Part shown: positions 9,087-39,395 of the stretch, one piece after another
How positions within the stretch are numbered: position 1 is the stretch's first letter
Layout of the letters: each line of letters starts with the position of its first letter
Translations under genes and position numbers: made by a program
The notes under the pieces: model-generated
Seen by the model: the letters and a program-made list of their open reading frames with translations, nothing else
What the model was told of the DNA's origin: nothing
The model's database searches: none
From: an uncultured Pseudomonadota bacterium
Lineage (GTDB): Bacteria; Myxococcota_A; Polyangia; Fen-1088
Reading direction: 5' to 3'
DNA: 64,000 nucleotides
Assembly: GCA_963737345.1 (NCBI GenBank)
Contig: CAVTSM010000013.1
Location: 26,280-90,279 of the forward strand

Positions 9087-10661
9087 ATGACCACGAAGCC
9101 CCCCACCGAACTGGAGGCCACCGGACATCCGGACGGTTCGGATCAGGATGTCGATGACCTGTCCGACGAGATCGTGGTCGATGCTTCGCAAGACGTCACG
9201 GTGGACGCGTCGGATGACGCGCTGGACGCGGAAGACGAACAAGTTTTCACGGCCAGCGAGACGCCGCCGCCCACCCCGGGGCCTCTGGTCGCTTCGACGG
9301 ATACGCCGCCCCCTCTCATGACCAAGCCCGCCGCCGCCTACTCCCGGCGCAACGCGCCCACGCTGCTGGGGATGCCGCTTCCGTCGTCGCCGTTGCCCGG
9401 CACCAGCGCACGCGCTTCGATGCTGGGGCTCGGGCTGGGTGAAGACGACCACGAGATCGGCGAGGACGACGACGAAGTCACCGTGATGGCCCGACCGTCC
9501 GTGACAGACGACGAGGAAGAGGCCACCAAGGTCGAACCCGCCGAGACGGCCATTCGCGCGGCCGCGATAAAGGACGACAGCGACGAAGATGAACTGACGG
9601 CCGCGCTGTCGACGCAGGCCAGCGTCGAACGCGAGCGCGCTCTCCGTAAGTCGATGCCGCCGTCGCTGGACGTGCCGTTGTCGGCGCACAGCTACCGCGC
9701 CGGCGAATCTTCGGGCGCTGAGTTCGCTGATTCGGCCGACCTGGCCGACGACGACGATGTGGCGCTGGCGGACGAAACACCTGGCGTTGCGATGGACGAG
9801 GACGAAAGCGCCACTGGCACGTACTCGGCCGACTCCGACGCCTCGGAGCTGGAAGCCGTGCTGGCGCCGCGACGCCCGACGTCACCCGCCGGCAGCTCGG
9901 CGCTGGGCGGCGCGGGGTTCGGCGCTCTGCCCTTCAGCGCGCCGGCGCCGCTGGCGCGGACCGACGGCTTCGGCGGTCGCTTGCCCACGCCCAGCGCGGG
10001 GCTGGGGCTGACGCTGCCGCCCAGCCCGTCGCTGCCGCCACCGGCCGCTTCGCCGTTCTCATCCCGATTGGCGCCCGGCGGATCGCCGTACCCCCGCAGC
10101 ATGTCGCCGGGACCGACCGGTTCCCATCCGGCACTGCAGATTCCGGCTCCCTCGGGCGCGGTGACCGTTGCCAGCACCGGCGGGATCTTTCGAAGCGTGC
10201 AGCTGCCGCTGGGCGGACTGGTTGCCTCCTGCCTGGCTTGCCTCGTCGGCGGGCTGGTGATCGGCGGGAAGTTCCTGGGGACGCGCGCACCGGCGCGCAC
10301 ACCCGCTGTCGCCGCCGCGCCGGCGCCCCTGCCCGCAGCCCCCGCGCCGGCACCGACACCGCCGCCCGTCGTCGCGCAGCCGGCGCCCGCGCCCGTGCCT
10401 GCAGCGCCGAGCGCGCGCGTCGCCGCCGCGCCGGCGCCGAAGCCCCAGCCGGCCACGCCGCCGCCGAGCCCCCCCGCCGCCCGGCCAGCTCCCAGCGAGC
10501 CCGCCGCCATCGCCGCCAGCGAAGACAGCCCGAAGCCTGCCGCCAAACCCGCCGCGCGCCCCGCCACCACACGCAAGGTGGCCACCAACAGCGGCGACGC
10601 GCCCGTCTCCAAGCCCCGGCCCAAGGTCGCCAAGGGCTGGGTCGACCCGTTCGCCGACTGA
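9087..10661 (+). CDS. Low-complexity membrane protein (acidic N-terminus, one TM helix, Pro/Ala-rich tail ending WVDPFAD)
   Basis: Long ORF with typical high-GC codon use; TM segment GGLVASCLACLVGGLVIGG. Confidence 0.7.
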   Translation: MTTKPPTELEATGHPDGSDQDVDDLSDEIVVDASQDVTVDASDDALDAEDEQVFTASETPPPTPGPLVASTDTPPPLMTKPAAAYSRRNAPTLLGMPLPSSPLPGTSARASMLGLGLGEDDHEIGEDDDEVTVMARPSVTDDEEEATKVEPAETAIRAAAIKDDSDEDELTAALSTQASVERERALRKSMPPSLDVPLSAHSYRAGESSGAEFADSADLADDDDVALADETPGVAMDEDESATGTYSADSDASELEAVLAPRRPTSPAGSSALGGAGFGALPFSAPAPLARTDGFGGRLPTPSAGLGLTLPPSPSLPPPAASPFSSRLAPGGSPYPRSMSPGPTGSHPALQIPAPSGAVTVASTGGIFRSVQLPLGGLVASCLACLVGGLVIGGKFLGTRAPARTPAVAAAPAPLPAAPAPAPTPPPVVAQPAPAPVPAAPSARVAAAPAPKPQPATPPPSPPAARPAPSEPAAIAASEDSPKPAAKPAARPATTRKVATNSGDAPVSKPRPKVAKGWVDPFAD

Positions 10662-10736
10662 ACCTCCCCGACGCCCGCGGTGGCGCGGCTAAGTGCTTGA
10701 CTTCGTAGGAAATTGAAAGCATAAGAGGCGGCAGTC

Positions 10737-10809
10737 GCGGGATTAACTCAGTTGGTAGAGTGTCAGCTTCCCAAGCTGAATGTCGCCGGTTCGAACCCGG
10801 TATCCCGCT
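10737..10809 (+). tRNA. tRNA-Gly(CCC), integration target
   Basis: GCGGGAT...TCAGC-TTCCCAA-GCTGA...GCCGG-TTCGAAC-CCGGT-ATCCCGC-T cloverleaf. Confidence 0.96.
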
Positions 10810-10810
10810 C
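10768..10810 (+). repeat. attL core (43 bp)
   Basis: TTCCCAAGCTGAATGTCGCCGGTTCGAACCCGGTATCCCGCTC, identical to 26556-26598. Confidence 0.95.
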
Positions 10811-12153
10811 CCAGGTAAGTCGCCGATTGGTCGCGCTTTTTCGGAGTCGCCGCGCGCGCTGAGATCGCCGTTTTCGAAAGCCTGCAGCAAGGGTGCAGCA
10901 AACCCGGGCGGGTCGGCCGTCTTCGGGGCCAGCTTCGTGGGCGTCGAAGCGGTAGCTGAAGCCGCGACCGGCAGCTCGTCGGGCGTCTTCGGGTTGATCG
11001 CCAGACGGTCGATCGCGCTCCGCAGGTAGCCCGGGGAGAGGTGCGCGTAGAACTCCGTCGTGATGCGCGGGTCGGTGTGCCGCATGATCCGCTGGACCGC
11101 CGGGAGGTCGGCGCCCGCCATGATGAGCAGCGAGGCCGTCGTGTGGCGCATGTCGTGGAACCGGAGCGGCCGGGACTGCGGGGCCGGCCAGAGCTTCATC
11201 TTGCATTTCGGGCAGCGGCGGACATCGTCGTCTGGCGCCAGCTCGGCGTACCCACACCCGCGCCGCCGGCAAATGTGGCGGTAGCCAGTGAGGATGTTCG
11301 CGCGGCGTAGCGCCCGCCGCAGGATCAGCTCGAGCTGAACTTGCCGCGAAAACATCCCGCCGTCGGGTCGCGGGAACACCAGCTCGGACGGAGATGCTTC
11401 GACGGCCGCGCGCAGGTACGGGAGAAGCTCCGCCGCGATCGGGATCGCATCGGCGTGGTTGCCTTTGGTTGTCTCGCGGTCGTGCGACCGGCGGATCGTT
11501 ATGAGCCGCGCCGAGAAGTCGACGTCCGCCTTCCGCAGCGCGAGCAGCTCTCCCTTGCGCATCCCAGTGTAGATCGCCGTCGCGAACAGGCACTTCCACT
11601 TGGCCGGCAGCTCGGCGAGGACGGCGACGACCTCCTCTGTGCGCAGGTAATCGGGCAGCCGATGCGGCACCTTCCGTTTCGGCACGTCCGCAACCGGGTT
11701 CGCTCCGACGAACCGCTTCGCCCGTCGCGCCATGGTGAACGCCCGACCGAGGTAGCCGCGAAGGTGGTTGAGCGTCTCGGCTGCCAGCTCCAGTGACTTC
11801 TCTTCGAGGAAGGCCTCGACATCGCCCGCCGTGACGTCGACGAGCCGGCGCGCGCCGAGCGCCGACCCGACGAGGTGCTTCCGGATCGTCCCGATGCAGG
11901 GTCCGTAAGAAACCTTCCGCTTGAGGAACTTCTCGGCCCACCAGTCGATCAACTCGTCGACCGTGCCGCCGCCGTCCTCGGGCGGGCGCACATCGAGGCC
12001 GTGCCGCGCGCGATCCTCGGCGACCTGGATTTCGCGAAGCAGCTCGAGGGCCTGCCCTTTCGTGCGGGCGTCGCAGACCCTGTCCTGCCAGCGTCCGCTC
12101 GCGTCCTTGTACTTGAGGTACCACCGCTTCCCGCGAAGGTATGGCTGCGCCAT
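10768..12153 (-). CDS. int: Tyrosine integrase, element-encoded part; frame stays open through attL and runs on to 9934 in the integrated state
   Basis: Catalytic motifs TGMRKGE, FHDMRH, MRH, EFYAH; Cys-rich insertion CRRRGC...CPKC; no stop before the att core. Confidence 0.92.
10881..10902 (+). repeat. Putative integrase arm-type site (left)
   Basis: CCTGCAGCAAGGGTGCAGCAAA (2x TGCAGCAA), identical to 26408-26429. Confidence 0.7.
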
Positions 12154-27664: not shown

Positions 27665-28495
27665 ATGAACGAAGAGAGTTTGGCAGGCGTCGGTGGTCTC
27701 GAGATCTTCACGCGCGTCTGGCGTCCCGACGGAAAGGCGCGAGCCGTGATGGTCATCGTGCCCGGCTTCAACGCGCACAGCGGGTATTACCAGTGGGTGG
27801 CTGAGCAGCTCGTTTCGCACGGTCTGGCGGTGTATGCGCTCGATCTGCGCGGTCGCGGCCGATCCGGGGGCGAGCGGTTCTACGTCGAGAAGATCTCGGA
27901 CTACGTCGACGATGTCGCGACGCTGGTCAGCTCGGCGAAATCGCGGGAGCCGGGCTTGCCGGTCTTCCTGCTCGGGCACAGCGCGGGCGGCGTGGTCGCC
28001 TGCACGTATGCCCTCGATCACCAGGCCGACATCGCCGGCCTGGTCAGCGAGAGCTTCGCGTACCGCGTGCCGGCCCCGGACTTCGCGCTGGCCGTCTTGA
28101 AAGGCCTGAGCCACGTCGCACCGCACGCCCACGCGGTCAAGCTCAAGAATGCTGACTTCTCGCGCGATCCCCAGGTCGTGGCCGCCATGAACGCCGACCC
28201 GCTCATCGCCGACGAGTCGCAACCGCTGCAAACCATGGCCGCCCTCGTGCACGCCGACGAGCGCCTGAAGAAGGACTTCGGCAAGATCACCTTGCCGCTT
28301 CTCATCCTCCACGGCACGGCCGACAAGGCCGCGAAGTCCAGCGGCAGCGAAGAGTTCTACGAGGCTGCCGGCTCGACCGACAAGACCCTGAAGCTGTATG
28401 ACGGCGCCTTTCACGATCTGCTCAACGACCTCGACAAGCAGGTCGTCCTGGCGGACGTCCAGCACTGGGTCGACTCGCACATGCCGCCGAACTGA
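27665..28495 (+). CDS. Lysophospholipase / monoacylglycerol lipase (Hydrolase_4)
   Basis: ALDLRGRGRS, LLGHSAGG, LHGTAD, YDGAFHDLLND. Confidence 0.9.
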   Translation: MNEESLAGVGGLEIFTRVWRPDGKARAVMVIVPGFNAHSGYYQWVAEQLVSHGLAVYALDLRGRGRSGGERFYVEKISDYVDDVATLVSSAKSREPGLPVFLLGHSAGGVVACTYALDHQADIAGLVSESFAYRVPAPDFALAVLKGLSHVAPHAHAVKLKNADFSRDPQVVAAMNADPLIADESQPLQTMAALVHADERLKKDFGKITLPLLILHGTADKAAKSSGSEEFYEAAGSTDKTLKLYDGAFHDLLNDLDKQVVLADVQHWVDSHMPPN

Positions 28496-28534
28496 GGTCC
28501 GGCCCGGCGCCGGTCATGTGAAAGGGCCCGCCGC

Positions 28535-28578
28535 GCGTGATACGTGCGTGATACGTGCGTAATACGTGCGTGATACGC
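28535..28578 (+). repeat. Tandem repeat 4 x 11 bp (GCGTGATACGT)
   Basis: GCGTGATACGT GCGTGATACGT GCGTAATACGT GCGTGATACGC, intergenic. Confidence 0.9.
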
Positions 28579-28621
28579 GATCGACGGATCAGACAGAGAG
28601 ACTGACCCGTGGATCGGTACA

Positions 28622-29539
28622 ATGGCGGATATGGGTCCAGTGGGTCGTGTTCGGGGGGCCGGGTTGGCGCTGGTTGCGGTCGTTGGACAGGCCGCGGCAT
28701 TGAGTGGTTGTAGTTCCAACCTCACGAGCAACGCCGCGACGGGCGGGGCTCCGGGGTCGGGCGGCGGTGCGCAGGGCGGCGGGAGCGGCGTGATGACTGT
28801 CGGCCCCACGCCCCGACCGCGTCATTGGCAGCAGGTCACCTGTTCCGTGCAGCGGACCGAGTGCTCCGGATTTGTCGAGGATGACTCGACGGGCCTGGAT
28901 GGACTCGACGTGAGCTGCCCGGCGGCCAACCTGGTCCAAGATGTCTCTTTCATCGCGTCGATCTGCTACGAGACGGGAGGGGGAGATGGGGGCGGGCCGC
29001 AGCAAGAGCAGGCGGACGCGCAGGACGCGTGCAACCGGTACTGTGCCGACGCCTTCCTGGGTCTCTACCCTCTCGGCGCTGTCGCAAACAACCGGAATGC
29101 GACAGGGGAGATGGTCACCTGTTCTTCCACGGCGCAAAAGGACACGATCACCGACGAGGTTGGCGGGCAATGCTCGAAGACGAAGCCTGGACCTGGGGCC
29201 GCCCCGGCACGGACCACGTTCGCGCTGTGCCTGCTCTCCGGCCGACAGTGCAACGCGCAGCAAACAGCCAAGGACGGGACGCCGTACTGCACGTCGATGC
29301 CACTCGTCAACGGCGGCCAGTCGACCAGCGGTTGCTTCGATTCCACGACCACGACGGCGGAGCTCTTCTGCCAGAACAACTTTCAGTTCCCCATGCCGCC
29401 GCCGGGCGCGGTGAACCAGTCAGCCCAGTTCCACTCCTGGCGGGTCGCTCAGGTGTTGCAGGAAAACAGCGAAGCAGACTGCCGCACCCAGGCGAACAAC
29501 CTGGGATTCGCCGGCCACGGGCTCAGCACGGCTCACTGA
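28622..29539 (+). CDS. Cys-rich lipoprotein, hypothetical
   Basis: LSGC lipobox, Gly linker, many Cys residues. Confidence 0.7.
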   Translation: MADMGPVGRVRGAGLALVAVVGQAAALSGCSSNLTSNAATGGAPGSGGGAQGGGSGVMTVGPTPRPRHWQQVTCSVQRTECSGFVEDDSTGLDGLDVSCPAANLVQDVSFIASICYETGGGDGGGPQQEQADAQDACNRYCADAFLGLYPLGAVANNRNATGEMVTCSSTAQKDTITDEVGGQCSKTKPGPGAAPARTTFALCLLSGRQCNAQQTAKDGTPYCTSMPLVNGGQSTSGCFDSTTTTAELFCQNNFQFPMPPPGAVNQSAQFHSWRVAQVLQENSEADCRTQANNLGFAGHGLSTAH

Positions 29540-29580
29540 CCTGAACGACGGTTGATCTCGCGCGCGTCGAGGAGCGAGCG

Positions 29581-31542
29581 TCAAGGACGGCTGCCCGGAA
29601 GAAGCGCAAAGATCGACGGTTCAATCGCGCGCCGGCCGGGGTCGGCCGCCCAGGTCGTGGACCAGGGATCGACGGCTTCGGGACCGGTCAAAAGTGGTGT
29701 GGTCACGCCGTCAGTGGCCCCTTCTTCGGGACAGAAGCCGCCGACGTGAAAGGCATGGCCGTCGAAGTGCAAGTAATGGATCAGGTGTCCACCCGCGGCG
29801 TCGAAGGCGGGTTGGGCGCGCCGGACCACCTCTTTCGCGATTGCGAACGGCGCGGCTGCGCTGGAGTAGATACCGTCGACCAGCCCCGTCTCACGCACCA
29901 GCGTCCTGGGCGAGACGAGCGCGTTCAGATCACCCGGATCCAGGTAGTCGCGCACGTCACCGCGTTGCCACTGCCAGCAGGGGTGGTTCCCGTGCAGGCG
30001 CATGATCGCCAGGTCGGAAGGGCCGCCGGCGGCGACAGCCGCACCGACCCGGGTGTCCATCGCGGCGACCCAGTCGGTGATCTCGCCGCCCATCGACAGT
30101 CCGACGGCGACCACCGCCGCCGGATCGACGTGAGGAAGCCTCAGCGCGTAATCGAGGCCACGCATGGCGTCCCAGGCCCGCTCACCGTCTTCTTCCCAGT
30201 CCGAGGTCGACCCAGGGACTTCGATGGCCGCGTGCAGTCCGTTCCCCGTTGCCGGATCGTCGGCGGCCGTGTCGCCGTAAACGGAGGCCCGATCCGCCAG
30301 CGGTCGATGGCCGACGTCGACTGCCACGACGACGAATCCCCTTCGGGCGAACAGATCGCCGTACCAATACAAGCCGGTGGGATTGAAGAGATCGTAGGCG
30401 CTGCCGCCATGCCCGTTCAAAGCCAGCGCCACGGGGTAGCCGCCCGGGGGTGCTGGTGTGGTGGGAATGGCGACGTAGCCGTGGGCGTGTCGGCTCATGA
30501 CCTGACCCCGCGCCAACGCGGGCACGCGGCTGTCAAAGGTCAGCTCGTGCAGCTGGTAGCGCTGAGGCCAGCTGGACATGTCGTCGTCGCGCGCCGCGTC
30601 GGCCAGGGTCGGGAGCGGCTGGCTCGTTGCGACGTCCGTGACCCGCATGTCGAGGGGCGCCGGATTTCCGCCGAACGCCAGCAGCGCAAGCCGCTTCCGC
30701 GTGCGGGTCTGCCAATCGGCCACTTCCGCCATCGTTCGCACGCCGATGCCGTGGGTCAGAACCTCGATCCGGGTGCCCGTCCAGGCAGCGGCCGTCCCGT
30801 CGCCCGGCAGCGCGGTCCCCGAAAGCGTCCGCCCGTCGGCATTGCCGTCGTACGCTGGCTGCCCAGGGGCCGCGCGACGGACGAACGACAGGTGGTGACC
30901 GTCCCATTGCCGGACGTCGACGTCCTCGGACGGCCGCTCGTCGAGCGCGCCGTCGAGCGCGTAAGGCTTGAGCGTCCCGATCAAGGCCGCGCCGGTATGG
31001 TTGGCACGGTCGACCCTCAGGACGGCTTCGGTGTGTCCGTCCAGGGAGACGTCCCAGACGCGCGGCGCGCTCTCGAAGGTTTCATCTCGCCACCCCGTCA
31101 CACGTCCCGTGTACTCGGTGGATTCGTCCGCCGGCGCCGTGGACGACATGCTGGTTCGCCCGGCAAGCACGCCCTCGGCCACCCGGACGCGGTAATGAAC
31201 AGGGCCGGTCGGCTCGACGACGCGCAACCGGAGGATGCCCTCGGCATAAATGGCGGTTTCTATGATCCCGGCCGCCGCTCCTGGCGCTTCCGAAACACTG
31301 GTGCCCGTCACCGTCCCCGTGGTCGGGTCCTTGGTGATGAACAATCGCAAGCGCACGCCGTCGCGATTCAGATACCAGTGTCCGAAAACATCGGGCGGAA
31401 TCGTGCGCGCCCCGTGGTTCGCAGAGAAGGCGGGACGATGCGGAGCAACCGAGGGTGACCGAGCTTCGTCGGCGCACCCCCCGACGGCGCCCGTCAAAAT
31501 GAGAACGTACAAGTGCCGTACGACGTTCCGTGAGCGCCCCAT
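29581..31542 (-). CDS. Lipoprotein with C-terminal alpha/beta hydrolase domain
   Basis: VGGC lipobox; LNGHGG, WDAMRGLDY, VGLSMGG nucleophile motif. Confidence 0.75.
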   Translation of the reverse strand: MGRSRNVVRHLYVLILTGAVGGCADEARSPSVAPHRPAFSANHGARTIPPDVFGHWYLNRDGVRLRLFITKDPTTGTVTGTSVSEAPGAAAGIIETAIYAEGILRLRVVEPTGPVHYRVRVAEGVLAGRTSMSSTAPADESTEYTGRVTGWRDETFESAPRVWDVSLDGHTEAVLRVDRANHTGAALIGTLKPYALDGALDERPSEDVDVRQWDGHHLSFVRRAAPGQPAYDGNADGRTLSGTALPGDGTAAAWTGTRIEVLTHGIGVRTMAEVADWQTRTRKRLALLAFGGNPAPLDMRVTDVATSQPLPTLADAARDDDMSSWPQRYQLHELTFDSRVPALARGQVMSRHAHGYVAIPTTPAPPGGYPVALALNGHGGSAYDLFNPTGLYWYGDLFARRGFVVVAVDVGHRPLADRASVYGDTAADDPATGNGLHAAIEVPGSTSDWEEDGERAWDAMRGLDYALRLPHVDPAAVVAVGLSMGGEITDWVAAMDTRVGAAVAAGGPSDLAIMRLHGNHPCWQWQRGDVRDYLDPGDLNALVSPRTLVRETGLVDGIYSSAAAPFAIAKEVVRRAQPAFDAAGGHLIHYLHFDGHAFHVGGFCPEEGATDGVTTPLLTGPEAVDPWSTTWAADPGRRAIEPSIFALLPGSRP

Positions 31543-31599
31543 CGACTACCGAGGACCCGGACCACGACGAAGAGGTTAAGCGACGGCTCGCCGAGCTCC

Positions 31600-31669
31600 C
31601 CCCGGCAGGGCCCCCAGGGCCCGGGGAGGTCACCGGGGGGCAGTTGACGGAGGGGCGGTTATCGGCCAG
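31600..31669. other. GC box plus XerCD dif-like site, copy 1
   Basis: CCCCGGCAGGGCCCCCAGGGCCCGGGGA, 14 nt, then AGTTGACGGAG-GGGCGG-TTATCGGCCAG (31642-31669; reverse CTGGCCGATAA-N6-CTCCGTCAACT). Confidence 0.6.
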
Positions 31670-31784
31670 CAGCGCTTGTTTTACTTATCCTCTCGCTGGA
31701 CCAAGTCCCTGCCGCCGTCATCACGGGCTACGGCGAGGCGATACGTTTGAACCGTGGTCAGCGGGGCATCTGACCGCGCGCTGC

Positions 31785-33608
31785 CTACGGCCGCAGGGGA
31801 AGCCAAACGAAGCACAGTCGACCGTGGCGGTCGGCGTCAAGCGCGCTGCCCAGCACCTTCACCATGGAGTCGGTTGTGGGCCACACGTAGTGAGCGGCCG
31901 TCACTGTCGCACCCATGTCGACACCGGCGTCGGTCAGGATGCTGGAGATCGCTCGTACGCCGCCACGATCCCAGACGACAGGCTGGCTGGGCGGACTGTT
32001 GAGAGCGCCCCGGCTACCTCCCACCGCCACCTTGCCATCCGGGACGATGCTTGAAATCGTTGAGATGGTCGCGCTGCCGAGGTGGGGGAGAAGCGCGAAT
32101 CCCCCTGTCTCCGACCAGCGGAACGGCCGTCGGGGGTCCTCGCTGGATTTTCCGACGAGGTTTACCTGACCGTTCACCGTGCTGCCATTGTCGCTCAGCG
32201 CGAGGAGCTGGATATCGTATCGGACGAACGCAGGGAGTCCAACGGGTACAGGGGGGTCGAAGGCTTCGTCCGGCAGCTTGAAGCGCTCGAGATCGCGCGT
32301 CTTGGTCCAGCGGAGCAGGGTTCTGCCAGTCAAGTCGAGCCCCACGGCGGCGCTCCCGTCGGCGTTGGTCAGTGTGATGATACCCGGACCACTCGCGATG
32401 GGGACCGTGCCTGAAGCGGCGGTCCACCGATACCCCATGCCCGCGATCGTGGTGGCGCCGGGTTCCGAACAGACGCCGTAGACAGTGCTCCCGTCGGCCG
32501 AGAGCACAGTCGGGCGACATGCCAGACCGGGAAGCGGTGGAATGTCGGTACGACCTCCGTCCTTCGACCAGCGGAAGGTCATGCTGCCAACAACGCCGGC
32601 AGTCTTGCTGCCGACGTCGCCGATCACGACACGCGCGTCGCTGCTGAGGAGAGAAGGGCCGGGGGCGAACGAAGTAGGGACGCCTCCCGCGGGCCACCCC
32701 GGTAGGCGTTCTACGTCGACGAAGCCGTCGCGGTCGGTCCAGGTGAAATAACGACTTGCGCGTACTGGATCCGCCGGCGACTGATAACCTCCCCAGGCTG
32801 TCCGGCCGTCAGGGCTCACGTACGAGATTTGGCCGTTGACCATTACGGATACGGGCGCGAGCCATGTGTATCCGCCTTTCGCCGACCAGCGGAATAAACG
32901 GCGCGGGACGAATTCGTTGGGGCGCGGGGAGAACATCTCTAGTCCGAAAACGCTCGTGCCGTCGCCACTGATTTTGTTAACCAAAGGAACCGAGGAATGT
33001 GCGTCGGGAAACGTTGGCAGCAGCACCGTACCTCCGGCTTCTGTCCAGACGAAGCTCTCCCCGTAGGGAATGCTCAAGGAGTAATCAATGCCAAGGATCA
33101 CCGTGCCGTCTTGACTGACGGCGGCGATCTGGGGGTAGGGCACACTGATCGGAAGAAGCTGCAAGCGGGGAGAGGGGCCAGCCGCGCCGCCGGTCGCCCC
33201 GGCGCCGCCTCCGCTGGAGCCTGCCACTCCGCCCGTCCCCGACGCGCCAGCGCCAGCCGCTCCGCGGCCCGCCGAGCCCCCCGCACCGCCACCGCCGGCC
33301 GCGTCGCCGGCTGCCGCGCCCCCCGCACCGCCACCGCCGGCCGCGCCGCCGGCTGCCGAGCCACTCGCACCACTCGGATTCGATCCCATTCCACCCGAAC
33401 TGGCTCCGGCGGAAACGCCGTCGCCACCCGTTGATCCGCTACGCCCCGCTTGCCCCGTCATGGTGACGTTGCCGGCGCCCGCGCTGCCCGCGTGACCGCT
33501 GCCCTGGACACCCCCATCGGCGGACACCTGGTGCCCCCGGCCCCCGTCGCAGGACAGGACGCCAAATAGTGCGACAGTTCCCGACGCCAGCCAGCGGAAG
33601 CGGTTCAT
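31785..33608 (-). CDS. Lipoprotein with Gly-rich linker and HAF-like beta-repeat domain
   Basis: VLSC lipobox; repeated (S)xDG...FRW(S/T)xxGG units. Confidence 0.75.
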   Translation of the reverse strand: MNRFRWLASGTVALFGVLSCDGGRGHQVSADGGVQGSGHAGSAGAGNVTMTGQAGRSGSTGGDGVSAGASSGGMGSNPSGASGSAAGGAAGGGGAGGAAAGDAAGGGGAGGSAGRGAAGAGASGTGGVAGSSGGGAGATGGAAGPSPRLQLLPISVPYPQIAAVSQDGTVILGIDYSLSIPYGESFVWTEAGGTVLLPTFPDAHSSVPLVNKISGDGTSVFGLEMFSPRPNEFVPRRLFRWSAKGGYTWLAPVSVMVNGQISYVSPDGRTAWGGYQSPADPVRASRYFTWTDRDGFVDVERLPGWPAGGVPTSFAPGPSLLSSDARVVIGDVGSKTAGVVGSMTFRWSKDGGRTDIPPLPGLACRPTVLSADGSTVYGVCSEPGATTIAGMGYRWTAASGTVPIASGPGIITLTNADGSAAVGLDLTGRTLLRWTKTRDLERFKLPDEAFDPPVPVGLPAFVRYDIQLLALSDNGSTVNGQVNLVGKSSEDPRRPFRWSETGGFALLPHLGSATISTISSIVPDGKVAVGGSRGALNSPPSQPVVWDRGGVRAISSILTDAGVDMGATVTAAHYVWPTTDSMVKVLGSALDADRHGRLCFVWLPLRP

Positions 33609-33858
33609 CCTGGTACCTTCATGTCGGCGCACTCGACAAACGTTTATCGTTTCTCACGACAAAGGGGTGCGCCCCGTGAATCATGCAACGCGCCGCAGCG
33701 ACGACTCGTCTCCGTTCAAGGAATGGTTACAGCCAACATCGCCGTGCAGTGGGCCAGCCGGAAGCGCCGCTTCGGAGTGGGCGCGACGGGGGGCGTCTTG
33801 GCGTCGGCGCGCCGGTACTGCGTCGCCCGCGGCGGGGACACGAAGAATAAGCGCGCGA

Positions 33859-34050
33859 TGTCAACGCCAAGTAGAAACGTCCGGGTTTCTGCCAAGTAGA
33901 AATGTCCGGTCCGACAGGGCCTGAGCGCGCTCCTCGCGACGCTGGGCCGCGCGAAGATTCTGAGCCTTCGTGCGTTCCCTCTGATCCTTCTCGAACTGAT
34001 CCATCGCCGCAAGACATCGGAAAGGAGCTGAGTTGAGTCCGATCATGCGT
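33859..34050 (-). mobile_element. Remnant end of an IS1202/ISNCY-like insertion sequence
   Basis: Terminus TGTCAAC with two internal repeats GCCAAGTAGAAA(C/T)GTCCGG (33866-33884, 33891-33909); no transposase core or opposite end seen. Confidence 0.65.
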
Positions 34051-34078
34051 CGAACGCCCGGTGCTCTCCGCCGCTCGC

Positions 34079-34648
34079 CTACTCCCCGAACACCTCCGCC
34101 ACGCGCACGGTCACGTCCTGAAATGCGAGCGGCGCCAGGCTCTCACCTGGCCGGTACGGCGTGACGCGCGTGTAGCTGCCGCCCGCCGGGTCGCTGTGCC
34201 GCTCAATTACCTTGTCAGCGATGTTGACGACCCAATACTCGGGCACGCCGGCGCGGGCGTAGAGGTCGGCCTTCTCGTGGCGATCGAACTTCAGCGAGGC
34301 ATCGGCGACCTCGATGATGAGGAACGCGTGGCCGGGGTGGGCATCTTTGAAGTAGCGAGGCTCGACGAGGGCGACATCGGGCTCGGGAAGGCTGTCCTCG
34401 CCGGAGGCGAACGGGAGCTGCACGCGGACGTCGGCGCGCCCGAGAAGCGGCGGGAGTAGCAACCTGTTCAGCATCTGGATCGCGGCCGCGTGCGGGGTGT
34501 TCTGCGGGCTCATTCGGACGATGACCCCCTCTATGAGCTCGATGCGCTCGTCGCGGAAAAGACCCGCGGCGATCATTCGCTCGTACTCTTCGCGCCGCAG
34601 CGGTCGCTGACGTTCCGCGAGCTGGCCCATAGCGTCCAAGTCTATCAC
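34079..34648 (-). CDS. Uma2 family endonuclease
   Basis: RIELIEGVIVRMSP...H, PEPDVAL, IIEVADAS...D...K...YARAGVPEYWVVN. Confidence 0.92.
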   Translation of the reverse strand: MIDLDAMGQLAERQRPLRREEYERMIAAGLFRDERIELIEGVIVRMSPQNTPHAAAIQMLNRLLLPPLLGRADVRVQLPFASGEDSLPEPDVALVEPRYFKDAHPGHAFLIIEVADASLKFDRHEKADLYARAGVPEYWVVNIADKVIERHSDPAGGSYTRVTPYRPGESLAPLAFQDVTVRVAEVFGE

Positions 34649-34883
34649 GTCGGTTCGCCGCCGCCGGCTCTGCCGAGCGTAAGTAGGGGGCCTGCGTCGA
34701 CGGCGAGCGCGCTATCCGTGTTCGGCATACGCGACCTCGTCGGCGGCGTCTTCCGGGCGCAGGTTACTCATCGCGCATCGCCCGCTAGCCCCGCTTCGAG
34801 AGCACAGAGTCGTCGCAGGCGATCGTCAGAGTCCGCGTCATGACCCGCCTTAGCCTACACGGCGGTGTGGCCGAGATCGTCAT

Positions 34884-34953
34884 CCCCGGCAGGGCCCGCA
34901 GGGCCCGGGAAAAGCGGGCGGGAGAAGTTGACATAGCGCCCCATTATGGGACA
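34884..34953. other. GC box plus XerCD dif-like site, copy 2
   Basis: CCCCGGCAGGGCCCGCAGGGCCCGGGAA, 14 nt, then AGTTGACATAG-CGCCCA-TTATGGGACAC (34926-34953; reverse GTGTCCCATAA-TGGGCG-CTATGTCAACT). Confidence 0.75.
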
Positions 34954-35018
34954 CAGCCCGCTTGAACCGAGTGACCGCGGCGCTCAGCGTATTGCCGCGG
35001 TCGAAGTCGCTCGAACCG

Positions 35019-36269
35019 TCAGTTCGGCGCAAACGCCATCTGGAGGAAGTTGAAAAGCCCAACCTCTGCCGTCGGATAATCGTGTTTGCCATCAGCCGGG
35101 CCCGACCCACCAATGTTGTTTTGAAACGAGAAGTTCGCCGCGGTGATGTTCGGGCCCTTGGTCGCCAGTCCATCCGCCGCAGACTTCGCGCTGCCGCCGG
35201 CCGTGGTGTCGCTCTTTCCGACTTCGATGTAGAAGTAGTAGACAGGATTCATCTGGGGATTCTCCATCGCGACGTGATCCGCGATGTCGCTGGCAGGGAA
35301 ACTGCCGCCCGCCGGATGCAGGGCGCCGAACCAGGCGAAGTCCTTCAGATGGGCGCAAAGACCGATCAGGATCGTCTGCATCCCACCGAATGAAAACCCG
35401 GCCAGCGCTCGCGAGGCGCGATCTTTCTTGACCGAATAATTCGCCTCGATGAACGGAATCAGGTCGTTCATCAACTCACCGCCAAAGTTGTAGTAGCCCT
35501 TGTCGTTTGAAGGGCTTCCAATCGTCCCAAACGGGAACACGGCAATGAACGGCTTGGTCGCCTTCGAGTTGATCAGGTTGTCAAAGACGGTCAAGAGCGG
35601 CGGATTCGCGAGCTGATACCACCTGCTCTCGTTGTTTCCGTAGCCATGCAGAATCACAATATACGGGTACTGCATCTGCGGGTCATAGCCGGGCGGCGTG
35701 TAGATATTGACCGGCTTCGTAACCGGCGTGCTCTGCTTGACCGGTGGCTTGAAGATATCGCCAACCGATCCGTTCGCGTTGTAGTAGTACGCTTGATACA
35801 TCTTGTTGGTCCATTTTCCACCGTTCGGAACGGCAGTGGCGAAGCTGGCCGGTATCGAGGTTGCGCTCTGGGGCGTCACGTGCGGTACGCCGCCGACCGG
35901 TCCGGGATCCGACCCGCCCGAGCCACCACCTGTTCCGGTGCTTCCTCCCTGAGCGCCACCGCCACGGCCGGCCGTGCTGGCGCCAGCGGTGCCGCCGGTG
36001 CCGCCGCCCGTTCCGGGAGCAGAGCCACCAGTTCCGGGTGCCACGCCCCCGGTGCCAACCACGCCCCCGGTTCCGGTCGTTCCGCCGGTCGCGGCGGGAG
36101 ATCCGCCCGTGCCAACAGTGCCGCCCGTCGCGGCCGTCGTCGTGCCGCCGGATCCGTTGCTGCCTCCGGTTCCCGGCGTACCGCCGGCGTCGCTGCTCGA
36201 GCAGGCGGGCAAGAGGAGGACAGCAACGAGCGCCCGGGTCAACGTGCCTACCTTGCTTTGCATTTTCAT
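35019..36269 (-). CDS. Lipoprotein esterase (CE1 / XynZ-like)
   Basis: LPAC lipobox, TGG linker, IYTPPGY, ILHG, DLIPFIEANY, RALAGFSFGG. Confidence 0.85.
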   Translation of the reverse strand: MKMQSKVGTLTRALVAVLLLPACSSSDAGGTPGTGGSNGSGGTTTAATGGTVGTGGSPAATGGTTGTGGVVGTGGVAPGTGGSAPGTGGGTGGTAGASTAGRGGGAQGGSTGTGGGSGGSDPGPVGGVPHVTPQSATSIPASFATAVPNGGKWTNKMYQAYYYNANGSVGDIFKPPVKQSTPVTKPVNIYTPPGYDPQMQYPYIVILHGYGNNESRWYQLANPPLLTVFDNLINSKATKPFIAVFPFGTIGSPSNDKGYYNFGGELMNDLIPFIEANYSVKKDRASRALAGFSFGGMQTILIGLCAHLKDFAWFGALHPAGGSFPASDIADHVAMENPQMNPVYYFYIEVGKSDTTAGGSAKSAADGLATKGPNITAANFSFQNNIGGSGPADGKHDYPTAEVGLFNFLQMAFAPN

Positions 36270-36592
36270 CTGGTTCTCCGTCTACCCTGCGACATTGCGT
36301 GATTCCGTCGGGTCATATTCTTAGACCAAGTCATCGGCGAGGACACGAGGTCATTTTTGCAACAGGGCTTTCCGCGAGTGGAGCCCTGGGTGCGGAAGAA
36401 AACGGTCACCTACGAAAAGGTCAACCGCCGGCAAAGAGCGATATTAGGCTCCGAGTGGCCCGCGGGGAGGCTTACGGGGTCGGCGCGAATCACTGGGCTG
36501 CAGCAACGATCGCCCGGCGTCATGCGTCGCGGCCAGGTGCTAATGAGCCACGTCAGGCACTCGCTGACGCGATGCAGAAGTTCTGGGCGCAG

Positions 36593-38221
36593 TCAGCTGG
36601 ACGGTCGGGCGGCAAGCGCATCCGCCGCTCCGACGGTTACGATCCCCATCGGTCCTGATGGCCCGCTCTCATCGTCCACGCCGCGCGCCGGGCCGGCTGC
36701 GATCGCGGGTTCGATCGACAGCGCGTGACGGAAGACGTTGCGCGGGTCGAATTGGGCCTTGAGCGCGCGCAGCCGCGGGTAGTTGCTCTGATAATAGATC
36801 GTCGACCAAGGGACGCCGGACGTGTTCCAGGCTGGATCGGCGAGATCGATGTCCGGATGATTGATCAGCGAGCCGTCGTACGCCGCGCCGGGCACCGCCA
36901 CGCCGCCCGTTTCCGCGAAGAGATCACGATACAAGGCGCGCACCCAGGCTAAAGAGCGCTGCTCGTCGCGCGGATCGCTCCAGCCGGTCGCGCAGCCGAT
37001 CTCCATCACCGCCGAACGTGAGGCGGTGGCGGTCGCGTCGGGCGCGACCCGATTGACGGCCCCACCGTAGGTCATCAGCGTCAGCGCGCCCGCCGCGGCC
37101 GGATCCACGAGGTGACGATACGCCACCGCCAGCTGGTGTTCGGCGAGACCCCGGCGCAAGAGCGCGTCCTTCACCTTCACGAAGGCCCGGTCGACCCCAG
37201 GCACGAACAGCTCCGGGAAGGGGCGCAGCGCGAACCCCAGCCAGGATAGTCTTTCCGTCGACCGCGTTGCCGGCGCGCCGACGTCCGTCGCCAAGGCAGC
37301 CACGTGCTCTTCGAACAGGCTTTGCGCGTCGTTGCCGGTGGTCACGATCCCTTTCAGATCCACCGTCCCGGCCAGACGTGGCTGAAAGGACAGCGTGCTG
37401 AACAGCGCCGACTCCCGCGCGCCGGGCGCGCTGTGGCTCTGACACCATTCGCCGAAGTTTCGCCCCAGGCGGATCAGCGCGCGCTCGTCGAGGTCGGCCC
37501 AATTCCAGGAGGCCCGGAACACCAACACCGACTCGGGCGCGCGGGGCAAGAGCGCCCCCGGATCGCGTCCCTCGGCTTCGGGAGAGCGAAACCAGTAGCG
37601 GGTGACCACGCCAAAATTGCCGCCGCCCGCTCCCGTGTGCGCCCACCACAGATCGCGATTCGGATCCGCCGCGTCGCGCGTCGCCACGACCGCTCGGGCC
37701 CCCCCTTCCGCATCGACGACCACGACTTCCACGGCATACAGGTGGTCCGCGCCCAGGCCATGCTGGCGATGCAAGAAGCCGTGCGCACCGCCCACGATGT
37801 GCCCGCCGATGCCAACCGCAGGGCTCTGCCCCGCCGGAATCAGCACGCCCCAGCCGTGATAGAGCCGCCCGTAGACTTCTCTCAACGTGGTGCCGCCCTC
37901 GACGGCGAACGCCCTGCGCTCCGGGTCGTACGTCACACCAGTCATGGCCGACATGTCGATGAGCGCCTTGACTGCCGAGTCGGCGACGAACCCCTCCAGG
38001 CAATGGCCGCCGCTGCGCACCGCCAGCCGCCGCTCTTCGCGCACCGCCGCTTCCACAGCGGCGAGCAGCTGCTCGGTCAATCCCACCACCCGCACGTAAT
38101 CGGGACTGCCGACGAAGCGGCGATTGAATCCTCGGCTCACCAGGTCCGCGTAGCGCGCATCTTCCGGCGTGATGGGGCGACTGTCCGCGCGGGCCTCGGG
38201 TGAGCGTGTTCGATCGGTCAT
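36593..38221 (-). CDS. FAD-binding oxidoreductase, berberine-bridge (BBE) family
   Basis: VRSGGHCLE, VGIGGHIVGG, GAGGGNFGVVT, NYPRLRALKAQFDPRNVF. Confidence 0.92.
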   Translation of the reverse strand: MTDRTRSPEARADSRPITPEDARYADLVSRGFNRRFVGSPDYVRVVGLTEQLLAAVEAAVREERRLAVRSGGHCLEGFVADSAVKALIDMSAMTGVTYDPERRAFAVEGGTTLREVYGRLYHGWGVLIPAGQSPAVGIGGHIVGGAHGFLHRQHGLGADHLYAVEVVVVDAEGGARAVVATRDAADPNRDLWWAHTGAGGGNFGVVTRYWFRSPEAEGRDPGALLPRAPESVLVFRASWNWADLDERALIRLGRNFGEWCQSHSAPGARESALFSTLSFQPRLAGTVDLKGIVTTGNDAQSLFEEHVAALATDVGAPATRSTERLSWLGFALRPFPELFVPGVDRAFVKVKDALLRRGLAEHQLAVAYRHLVDPAAAGALTLMTYGGAVNRVAPDATATASRSAVMEIGCATGWSDPRDEQRSLAWVRALYRDLFAETGGVAVPGAAYDGSLINHPDIDLADPAWNTSGVPWSTIYYQSNYPRLRALKAQFDPRNVFRHALSIEPAIAAGPARGVDDESGPSGPMGIVTVGAADALAARPSS

Positions 38222-38657
38222 CTCCCTCCTCCTGAGGGTGAAAAGCTACGTCAAGGACTCTCAACGAGCCAACCACTCGCACTTGCCTTGCACGCAGGCG
38301 CCAGCATGCGCCGGGCGGAACTCGTCCACGTTGGAGCGCCGGGCGTCGGCTTCAGCGCAGCGGGACCCCACCTACCCAGGCGTTCGGATCTTGACGTTCA
38401 TGGTGAGCCTTGACCGCAGGGGACGAGTGAGCGAGCTCGGTCTGAACGCCATCCTCGTCAACGTTGGATGAGCGCCTTCAGACCAATCACCACGTCTGCG
38501 GCGCTGCTAAGAAAACGCACAGTTGGGCGGATTCGACGTGCTGTGGTCGACGCGCTCCGGCGCGACCGCCGGAAGCTCCTGCGGAAGCAGGGGCGCGGGC
38601 GCTTTCAGTTTCCCGGCGTTTGCGCGCGCGTGGCAGTCTCTTCGCGGGGAGGCAGCC

Positions 38658-39395
38658 ATGATCTCCATTCAGGGGCTGAGTAAACGCTACGGCGAGTTCG
38701 AGGCCGTCGCACCGTTTTCGCTGCAGGTGGACAAAGGCGAGGTCTTTGGCTTCCTGGGCCCGAACGGCGCCGGGAAGACGACGACCATCCGCATGCTGAT
38801 GGGGATCCTGGTGCCGTCGGCGGGCCGCGCCCTGATCGACGGCCTGGATTGCCACGGCGACGTCGCCGACGTCAAACGCCGCGTCGGCTACCTGCCGGAC
38901 AGCCCCGTCTACTACGACTATCTGCGCGGGCGCGAGATCCTGGCTTTCGTCGGCGAGATGCACGGCATCGCGGCTAGCGACGCGGATGCGCGGGCGCGCG
39001 AGCTGTTGGGTGAGCTGGACCTGGGCGGCGCCTCCGAGGAGTACGCCATCAACTATTCGATGGGCATGAAGAAGAAGCTGGGGCTGGCCTGCGCGCTCAT
39101 CCACGATCCGCCCGTGCTGATCTTGGACGAGCCGACCAATGGGCTGGATCCGCGCGCGGCGCGCGAGGTTCGGGATCGGCTGCAGGCCGCCGCCGGTCGC
39201 GGCAAGACCATCTTCGTGTCCACGCACCTGCTCGACATGGCGGAGCGCCTTTGCACCCGCGTCGGCATCATCAACGGCGGCCGCCTCGTAGAGGTCGGCG
39301 ACGTGGAGACGCTGCGCCGCAAGCTCGCGCCGGGCGGTTCGCTGGAGGAGATCTTCATCAAGGTGACCGAGCGAAACGACGCGGAACCGACGTGA
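38658..39395 (+). CDS. ABC transporter ATP-binding protein
   Basis: GPNGAGKTT, YSMGMKKK, ILDEPTNGLD, STH. Confidence 0.95.
   Translation: MISIQGLSKRYGEFEAVAPFSLQVDKGEVFGFLGPNGAGKTTTIRMLMGILVPSAGRALIDGLDCHGDVADVKRRVGYLPDSPVYYDYLRGREILAFVGEMHGIAASDADARARELLGELDLGGASEEYAINYSMGMKKKLGLACALIHDPPVLILDEPTNGLDPRAAREVRDRLQAAAGRGKTIFVSTHLLDMAERLCTRVGIINGGRLVEVGDVETLRRKLAPGGSLEEIFIKVTERNDAEPT

Follow-up and report, generated by a model that had tools for sequence, protein, structure and literature searches.

Dif-like chromosomal elements of uncultured soil myxobacteria: a possible gene-shuffling system driven by host recombinases

Introduction

Why would a bacterial chromosome carry, besides its own dif, further sequences that imitate this site of the host recombinases XerC and XerD (XerCD)? 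The question is raised by two repeat units in a stretch of DNA of 64,000 nucleotides (the window; GenBank assembly GCA_963737345.1, contig CAVTSM010000013.1, positions 26,280 to 90,279) from an uncultured bacterium of the Polyangia. An earlier note, made from the letters of the window, had read each unit as a GC-rich box followed by a dif-like site, and the pair as the borders of one cargo module in a candidate chromosomal Xer cassette system. As described below, the units belong to an element family of one genus, with arms that copy the host dif and with copies that tend to stand in co-oriented arrays between accessory genes. Overall, the family has the appearance of a system for shuffling genes in uncultured soil myxobacteria that is driven by host recombinases, and its sequence features suggest a new, directly oriented, chromosomal variant of the Xer dif modules, the copies of which would recombine with each other.

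Anatomy of the element

The two boxes start at 31600 and 34884 on the same strand, 3284 bp apart, are identical at 26 of 28 positions and are followed in both units by a spacer of 14 nt, all as the earlier note had it. A 26-nt box pattern, with up to 3 mismatches allowed, matched the window exactly twice and none of 100 dinucleotide shuffles of it. The parts of the two units are as follows.

31600..31692, plus strand: element copy 1 (box, spacer, dif-like core, accessory arm); model R1 (see below) 73.6 bits, E 4.8e-22, over 31597-31701
31608..31622, plus strand: GC hairpin of box 1, GGGCCC-CCA-GGGCCC; read from the sequence, forms in folds of single-stranded DNA (ssDNA)
31642..31669, minus strand: dif-like core 1, XerC arm CTGGCCGATAA-CCGCCC-CTCCGTCAACT XerD arm; arms compared with the genus dif
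31673..31692, plus strand: accessory arm 1, CGCTTGTTTTACTTATCCTC; block kept in 19 aligned copies, motif scan
34884..34976, plus strand: element copy 2, accessory arm degenerate (CGCTTGAACCGAGTGACC); R1 81.6 bits, E 1.5e-24, over 34881-34987
34892..34906, plus strand: GC hairpin of box 2, GGGCCC-GCA-GGGCCC; sequence and fold
34926..34954, minus strand: dif-like core 2, GTGTCCCATAA-TGGGGCG-CTATGTCAACT, 7-nt centre; A-type core common to at least 20 copies

Read on the plus strand, the core of unit 1 is AGTTGACGGAG-GGGCGG-TTATCGGCCAG (31642-31669) and that of unit 2 is AGTTGACATAG-CGCCCCA-TTATGGGACAC (34926-34954). The layout of 11-6-11 previously given for both cores stands for unit 1; unit 2 is 11-7-11, one base having been dropped (TGGGCG for TGGGGCG), and its core ends at 34954 instead of 34953. 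Two arms of ~11 bp in inverted orientation that resemble dif thus enclose a centre of 6-7 nt in both units, which is the make-up of a Xer/dif-type site. Beyond the XerC arm, some 3-5 variable bases lead to a further conserved stretch, CGCTTGTTyyNCyTATCC[TG]C, termed here the accessory arm; it is found as CGCTTGTTTTACTTATCC(T/G)C at 31673-31692 in unit 1 and in a degenerate form at 34959-34976 in unit 2. Since conservation runs on past the XerC arm into this stretch, the whole element measures ~105 nt; the units of ~70 bp recognised earlier are present, with the XerC-side accessory arm overlooked.

In an alignment of 19 copies, both window units included, the element consists of a GC hairpin and a G-rich spacer on the XerD side, the core with its 6- or 7-nt centre, and the accessory arm on the XerC side. 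The XerD arm is the best conserved block and the centre the most variable part, in sequence as well as in length. The stem of the box hairpin (GGGCCC-N3/4-GGGCCC) is kept among variants, and 1-nt insertions are confined to its loop. This hairpin was also the sole consensus structure found by RNAalifold in 10 copies on both strands, and ssDNA folding of 4 copies on both strands gave z-scores of -0.79 to +1.08, with unusual stability only in the box hairpin. Rfam gave no match in window positions 28000-39000 at E up to 1. The box, a hairpin or palindrome, may be a candidate site for an accessory protein or an HUH enzyme, and hairpin and accessory arm together probably serve accessory factors or such an enzyme.

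Other readings of the repeat were rejected: coding on the minus strand by an ATG missing in some copies and by 1-nt indels between copies; a sigma-70 promoter (TTGAC...TAT) by the spacing of 10-11 nt in the sequence itself; and a miniature inverted-repeat transposable element by ends (CCCGGCAGGG... and ...TATCC[TG]C) that are not inverted repeats and by flanks without duplication.

Distribution, arrays and cargo

A scan of the genome and its relatives had been proposed as a check. The window's own genome (G000; 6.09 Mb, 18 contigs, 69% G+C) holds 12 copies by profile search, three of them truncated and two without a box. Across 26 genomes of the genus, all of them metagenome bins of uncultured Polyangia (Myxococcota), a sequence-only model of the element (R1; E <= 1e-5) gave 93 copies in 21 genomes, with 0 to 24 copies per genome and the highest counts in the most contiguous assemblies. 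Outside the genus, where R1 was run under Infernal's stricter filters, 13 genomes of other genera of the family and 133 further genomes of the class gave 0 copies. Multiple sites with different centres are present, as the earlier reading had anticipated, and they tend to form co-oriented arrays that separate accessory genes.

Adjacent copies are co-oriented in 16 of 17 pairs lying within 5 kb of each other and in 21 of 25 within 12 kb; these counts come from the 93 census copies of related genomes, which are not independent trials. G017 has a series of five near-identical copies spaced 1.0-2.3 kb, and arrays of two to four copies occur in G019, G021, G020 and G016. Copies of a single array usually share their core, as seen in a table of 54 copies. 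In a strain variant of the G017 array (L051), the cassette order was unchanged. The elements sit on contigs of 0.2-2.2 Mb, and in G000 nine copies point with the leading strand and three against it (7 of 9 loci), which is not significant.

The genes flanking the copies are mutually unrelated and varied in orientation. The cargo is diverse and includes Uma2, HEPN, DUF4826 and PIN-like genes, a serpin and a muramidase, as well as BNR and collagen-like proteins, a GH9 cellulase, a GMC oxidoreductase, an AraC regulator and OmpA-family genes. No family was assigned to many others, and no phage genes were seen in the cargo.

Two irregular arrangements were recorded among the copies. On contig C3 of G000 (579489-581840), a piece with the accessory arm only (581822, minus strand) and a piece running from box to centre (579557, minus strand) are separated by 2.2 kb and by an IS630-type DDE_3 transposase gene; they follow each other as they would after integration of a circle at a core. 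In G021 (C4; locus L056, 5824-5956), one element is partly duplicated in tandem: box, spacer, XerD arm and half a centre are followed by a second spacer and XerD arm and then by a centre and a XerC arm, which resembles the product of an aberrant recombination.

Mimicry of the chromosomal dif site

The real dif of G000, for which GC skew had been suggested as a guide, was located outside the window at C17:122777-122801 (AATGTCCGATAA-GAAATA-TTCTGTTAACT) using a loose pattern derived from the element core. The cumulative GC skew of contig C17 peaks at this site. By a wide margin, the most strand-skewed octamer of G000 is GGGCAGGG (399 leading vs 86 lagging, z 14.2), the classical consensus of the FtsK-orienting polar sequences (KOPS) with N = C; on C17 it occurs 12 times forward and 0 times reverse to the left of the site, and 2 times forward and 40 times reverse to the right. 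The 25-mer, searched with up to 3 mismatches, was present in 24 of 24 congeners (once in 23, twice in G016) and in 1 of 16 genomes of other families, and its reversed control gave 0. The skew peak, the strand switch of GGGCAGGG and the presence in all congeners searched show the C17 site to be the real dif of G000. Across the genus, its consensus is GTCCGATAA-GAAATA-TTCCGTCAAC, with the XerD-side arm written TTC[CT]GT[CT]AAC; the canonical pattern ATAA-N6-TTATG had 0 hits in G000.

Because dif lies on C17, neither window unit, being 2 of the 12 copies in G000, is the chromosomal dif. The case that would have deflated the earlier proposal, namely just two copies of which one is the chromosomal dif, is thereby excluded. 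The idea that the box is a KOPS motif on which FtsK loads was not supported either: the box octamer CGGCAGGG is unskewed in G000 (263:214, vs 399:86 for GGGCAGGG), and the CAGGG motif of the box is not conserved across the family, being lost in variants such as CCCCGGGGGACCGTAGGGCCCC, which keep the hairpin stem.

Over the 54 copies compared, the arms of the elements match the genus dif almost base for base, and the centre differs. For instance, the six-base (B-type) core on the box strand, GTTGACGGAA-GGGTTC-TCATCGGAC, agrees with dif, GTTGACGGAA-TATTTC-TTATCGGAC, at 10/10 and 8/9 positions of the arms and at 3/6 of the centre. The seven-base (A-type) core reads AGTTGACGGAG-CGCCCCA-TTATCAGCCAC on the same strand. 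The confinement of the elements to the genus matches the restriction of this dif variant. G000 encodes a XerD on contig C9 (TIGR02225, 359.9 bits, above the cut-off) and a XerC-like protein on contig C2 with TIGR02224 (XerC) as its best model (300.9 bits, below the cut-off of 335).

Moreover, certain insertion sequences (IS) recognise dif and element alike. In the published account of these "dif hunters", the IS1202 group inserts 5 bp from the XerC arm, and its transposase is suggested to read XerC bound at the site (PMC10132070). In the genus studied here, IS1202-type ends are found at the true dif of G014 and at elements of G017 and G021, in each case 5 bp beyond the XerC arm. At the dif of G014, the XerC arm is followed by CGTGA, a 0.4-kb non-autonomous IS copy and CGTGA again, a 5-bp duplication; the last element of the G017 array has an IS1202-type end 5 bp past its XerC arm; and in G021 a full IS of 3.4 kb (L056) splits an element at the same distance. 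The transposase of the latter scores 479 bits on the ISNCY model NF033594 and is 47-51% identical to plasmid ISNCY-family transposases, the rows of ISKpn21 and ISEsa1 (IS1202-like) standing at 49%; a search of PDB sequences with it gave 0 hits. If the IS1202 transposase reads bound XerC, the elements would be occupied by XerC in vivo. The earlier description of the cores as dif-like is borne out both by the arms and by these insertions at the two kinds of site.

A related observation was made in G002 (C42:277-349, L010), where the inner repeat of an IS1202-type end passes directly into the true dif at its XerC arm (...GCCAAGTAGAAATGTCCG|ATAAGAAATATTCCGTCAAC). The internal transposase-site repeat of the IS resembles the outer XerC arm there (AATGTCCG), and the two were apparently joined by a deletion.

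Identity breaks at the central region

Two IS91-like copies of G021, on C6 and C4, are identical at 215 of 217 positions up to the last base of the centre and at 39 of 61 over the next 60 nt, a step from 99% to 64% that falls exactly at the central region. Between G021:C4 and a third copy of this IS91-like element, G020:C15, the left sides are identical at 158 of 232 positions and the right sides at 48 of 61. The alternative right side (ATCTCGGCnATT...) also terminates two "truncated" copies, in G000 and G021, and a triple in G019 shows the combinations L1R1, L1R2 and L2R2. Judged from these comparisons, the loss of identity falls at the centre, which is what crossovers at that place would produce.

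The window locus

In minus-strand order, the locus comprises an esterase gene, unit 2, a Uma2 gene, an IS1202-type end fragment with an inverted accessory-arm remnant, a 615-aa gene, unit 1 and a hydrolase gene. The features besides the two units are the following.

29581..31542, minus strand: flanking alpha/beta-hydrolase gene (peptidase S9-like, below cut-off); orthologues in 6 congeners, 69-79% identical
31785..33632, minus strand: cargo gene of 615 aa, the lipoprotein gene of the earlier note; no Pfam match
33836..33853, minus strand: remnant of a third element, inverted, accessory arm only (minus strand CGCTTATTCTTCGTGTCC); weak R1 match over 33828-33858, model positions 79-110, E 0.13; reading of the sequence
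33859..33998, plus strand: IS1202-type (ISNCY) dif-hunter end fragment, TGTCAAC..., with two copies of the 19-mer GCCAAGTAGAAA[CT]GTCCGG; 90-96% identical to ends in G014, G002, G017 and G020
34079..34648, minus strand: cargo gene for a Uma2-family putative endonuclease; PF05685, E 1.5e-28
35019..36269, minus strand: flanking putative esterase gene; PF00756, E 6.2e-10

The content between the units had been correctly given as the 615-aa gene, an IS end and the Uma2 gene; the inverted remnant at 33836-33853 had been missed. It forms the sole inverted case in the window, together with unit 1, and is without a XerC arm, just a 5-nt gap (33854-33858) separating its accessory arm from the IS end. 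By comparison with the full copy L056 of G021, the IS fragment at 33859-33998, which is an end fragment only, is assigned to the IS1202 family. Members of this family have TGT...ACA ends, a copy of the end sequence further inside and a TnsB-like transposase, and ends and repeats of this kind were seen in the related copies as well.

The centres of units 1 and 2 are unlike in sequence, one has 6 nt and the other 7, and an inverted remnant lies between the units; they are not partner sites, and the proposal that they flank one cargo module was not upheld. From their sequences, they are best read as junctions of separate modules, and the locus is a worn stretch of module junctions rather than a single cassette. 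Homology to the hydrolase gene in the 6 congeners ends, in the three longest cases, at 31582-31591, just before box 1 (31600), and in the others within the gene; no elements were found at these 6 loci. A metagenome scan with the hydrolase/peptidase protein gave 2 loci, at 42% and 74% identity, and no close strain.

No orthologue of the 615-aa gene was found among the 25 congeners, the matches being confined to its Gly/Ala/Pro-rich repeat region. These repeats (33170-33450) have a periodicity of 42 nt and match many loci of the genus at ~70%, and they are a common low-complexity linker, not a sign of orthology.

Proposed mechanism

There is, in our estimate, about an even chance that the elements are dif-mimic sites used by the host XerCD to join and separate gene modules. 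XerC and XerD would bind the arms, and strands would be exchanged at the centre between copies with a common centre. Circular gene modules with one copy each, which presumably exist, would be inserted beside a resident copy or excised from it, with XerCD as the presumed acting enzyme. The outcome would be co-oriented arrays of accessory genes, integron-like but without an integrase of their own, in which IS91-like elements may be one class of passenger or founder.

Several observations weigh against this scheme. Many copies have a centre of 7 nt, unlike dif. No excision product, circle or empty site was observed: the empty-site comparison at the window locus gave none because the hydrolase orthologues of the 6 congeners share neither flank, and congeners are in general too diverged for synteny tests. 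In public data, 9 sequencing runs contained at most 0.24 of the sampled words, and contigs from 4 runs were short, with joint sides below 30 nt, and unusable. An all-against-all comparison of the cargo of 36 loci found nothing identical in two different arrays. The mosaic test on 34 full copies was one-sided, with 17 pairs alike on the left and different on the right and 0 pairs of the reverse kind; as conservation is systematically higher in the left halves, unequal constraint could account for some of the mosaicism. No element lies near the true dif in G000, G017, G019, G020 or G021, so that the classic route of mobile elements that integrate by exploiting Xer (IMEXs) is not used. Finally, spread by transposition is allowed by the fixed link of some elements to Y2 genes, and other tyrosine recombinases lie close to copies more often than expected, as discussed in the next sections.

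Link to IS91-like transposons

A tie to IS91-like (Y2, HUH) transposons was not foreseen by the earlier note. In five genomes, 5 of 14 Y2_Tnp hits have an element 0.3-0.42 kb downstream on the same strand. Two lineages can be told apart. Lineage (a) has members in G017, G020, G019 (twice), G000:C12 and the metagenome-assembled genome L052, and a copy with a deletion in G021:C8; its homology extends without a break from the Y2 gene via a palindrome and ...GGGTC|CTTGTTTTCG into the box. The second, lineage (b), is 63-68% identical and was seen in three copies; it is laid out alike but for another hairpin region, and it carries GGTC|CTTGTTTTCC, a G-rich spacer and the dif-like core AGTCGACAGAA-TCGGTC-CTATCGGCCGT. 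Of these two lineages, G000 holds just a fragment of 182 aa. A Y2 gene lies immediately beside an element in three arrays, and in all of them the gene is found at the upstream edge of the array.

These findings are what the main rival explanation builds on. It holds that the element is the transposase-distal (oriIS-side) end module of an IS91-like HUH Y2 transposon and that it spreads as this transposes; the solo copies and arrays would have been left behind by one-ended or tandem transposition and by loss of the transposase, and the dif mimic would be secondary, serving for example a circular intermediate. The CTTG beside a subterminal palindrome also fits the published arrangement of IS91-family ends and targets (PMC13181058). 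We nevertheless regard this explanation as rather unlikely. Ends of this kind with an adjacent Y2 gene were seen at 5 of the 14 Y2 loci and in the three lineage (b) copies, but 11 of the 12 G000 copies, both window units included, have no Y2 remnant next to them. Most solo copies have a sharp start at the box and lack the CTTGTTTTCG linker. Between IS copies, identity is lost at the centre and not at CTTG. In the IS91 mechanism as published, DNA on the terIS side is moved (PMC13181058), and the arrays lie on the oriIS side. Transposition also leaves unexplained why the arms track the host dif.

The Xer scheme and transposition of the IS91 type may both be partly true. A hybrid can be put forward tentatively, as a possibility, in which IS91-like Y2 elements without a recombinase, but with a dif mimic, and transposase-less modules are both inserted and excised by the host XerCD at chromosomal landing pads outside the terminus region. 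Single-stranded circles may be released, as in CTX-type phages, when the HUH enzyme nicks CTTG by the hairpin, and the result would be an integrase-free, integron-like array.

At the left end of both Y2 lineages (L040:6494-6650, L060:4240-4400, L083:77-330), a half site resembling a XerC arm was seen ~100 nt ahead of the transposase start, in the form GCGTCCGAT[GA]A or CTTCCGATGAA. Its orientation is opposite to that of the core at the far end, and no recognisable XerD arm comes after it.

Inert repeats or dedicated recombinases as improbable readings

Two further explanations fit less well than the Xer and IS91 readings. According to one of them, which is improbable, the repeat is dispersed, decaying and inert: once dif-like, it would now survive without recombining in gene-poor island DNA. 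Truncated and degenerate copies are indeed common, the accessory arm of unit 2 has decayed, and no movement was observed. However, arms and hairpin are kept where orthologous genes are just 69-79% identical, the centre meanwhile varying freely; single arrays contain near-identical copies; copy number ranges from 0 to 24 among congeners; and dif-hunter IS elements recognise the copies.

The other explanation concerns tyrosine recombinases of the same islands. G000 has 16 PF00589 hits. One of them, a frame of 739 aa in the window (9934-12153, minus strand; E 4e-22), is 50-61% identical to the element-adjacent recombinases of G017, G019 and G021, and the 20 kb to either side of it are free of elements. 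Outside the window, on the same contig at G000:C13:182983-186458 and 124 kb from the units, an integron integrase (TIGR02249, 446 bits) adjoins an IS91-like Y2 transposase and a Xer/IntI-like recombinase of 285 aa. A box-only match at C13:173557 lies 9 kb from this integrase locus, and contig C15 has a match with Y2 and recombinase scores identical to it.

That the elements are attachment sites of a dedicated non-Xer tyrosine recombinase, such as the family of the window frame, with the likeness to dif a matter of shared ancestry, is very improbable: 12 of 65 copies in five genomes do lie within 5 kb of a PF00589 hit, vs ~1.6 expected, and members of one family (44-61% identical) stand 0.1-1.9 kb away from copies in G017, G019 and G021 and 20 kb away from one in the window, but 53 of 65 copies have no recombinase within 5 kb, four whole arrays (G019:C6, G019:C8, G021:C5, G021:C1) have none within 50 kb or on the contig, gene and site vary in relative position and orientation, the arms match the host dif rather than a private site, and the integron integrase is distant from units that show no attC-like fold.

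Comparison with known systems

In the pdif modules of Acinetobacter, sites alternate between C/D and D/C. The elements described here differ in being co-oriented in nearly all adjacent pairs within 5 kb. The published pdif descriptions label sites C/D or D/C (PMC10132070), and for Acinetobacter chromosomal dif-module islands have recently been reported, in which modules cluster into multi-module islands (PMC12907356). As there, several dif-like sites besides the true dif bound accessory modules, with genes of the toxin-antitoxin type included (PMC12907356), and the IS1202 group inserts 5 bp from the XerC arm (PMC10132070). Unlike pdif sites, the elements sit on large contigs of a myxobacterial genus and not on Rep_3 plasmids, add ~75 nt of conserved hairpin, spacer and accessory arm, have in many cases a centre of 7 nt, and are linked to IS91-like transposons.

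The IMEXs (phages CTX, TLC and VGJ, the gonococcal island) have no recombinase of their own and integrate at dif by the host XerCD through a dif-like site with a private centre. Tandem co-oriented arrays occur among them, and the phage cases have an HUH replication protein beside the site. The elements resemble them in having no recombinase of their own, in the dif-like site with a private centre, in the tandem co-oriented arrays and in the HUH gene beside some copies; unlike IMEXs, they lie away from dif in the five genomes named above and carry ordinary accessory genes. The plasmid multimer-resolution sites cer and psi have a XerCD core with a non-dif centre (8 bp in cer) and accessory sequences on the XerC side, are FtsK-independent and recombine only as direct repeats. 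The likeness extends to the XerCD-type core, the non-dif centre and the XerC-side accessory sequence; in comparison, the accessory region of the elements is ~35 nt instead of ~180 bp, a hairpin is added on the XerD side, and they occur in tens per chromosome, separating gene modules.

As in integron arrays and clusters of attC sites lacking integron-integrases (CALINs), the sites share one orientation, a single promoter-independent accessory gene or a few such genes lie between neighbouring sites, and strains differ in the length of their arrays. Unlike attC, the elements have neither an overall hairpin fold nor a GTTRRRY core, the integrase is far from the window units, and most arrays have no adjacent tyrosine recombinase. 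The end of ISCR1 abuts variable accessory genes. Like IS91 and ISCR elements, the Y2-linked copies have a Y2 HUH transposase gene followed by a palindrome-bearing end with CTTG, abutting variable accessory genes (PMC13181058). Unlike them, the end contains a mimic of the host dif; we found no such IS91-family end described in the literature, to which supplementary tables of IS91 ends may add. The canonical IS91-like copies of G000, beside which a Xer/IntI-like tyrosine recombinase gene is found, had no dif-like core within 1.7 kb downstream. Likewise, no dif-like module arrays were found described in Myxococcota, a comparison on which supplementary tables of IS1202 targets may bear.

Significance

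To our knowledge, gene modules driven by Xer have until now come essentially from plasmids of Acinetobacter; there they shuffle resistance genes, and how they move is still debated. The case in soil Polyangia is independent of that system and architecturally different from it, with direct repeats, accessory arms, a chromosomal setting, dif-hunter IS and a link to rolling-circle elements. For the genus itself, the analysis adds a dif site and the KOPS-like motif GGGCAGGG, and it extends dif hunting of the IS1202 type to Myxococcota. If the proposed reading is true, a second system would be at hand for the roles of accessory sequences, centre length and FtsK-independence, and the hijacking of the universal dimer-resolution machinery for gene capture would be a recurrent solution.

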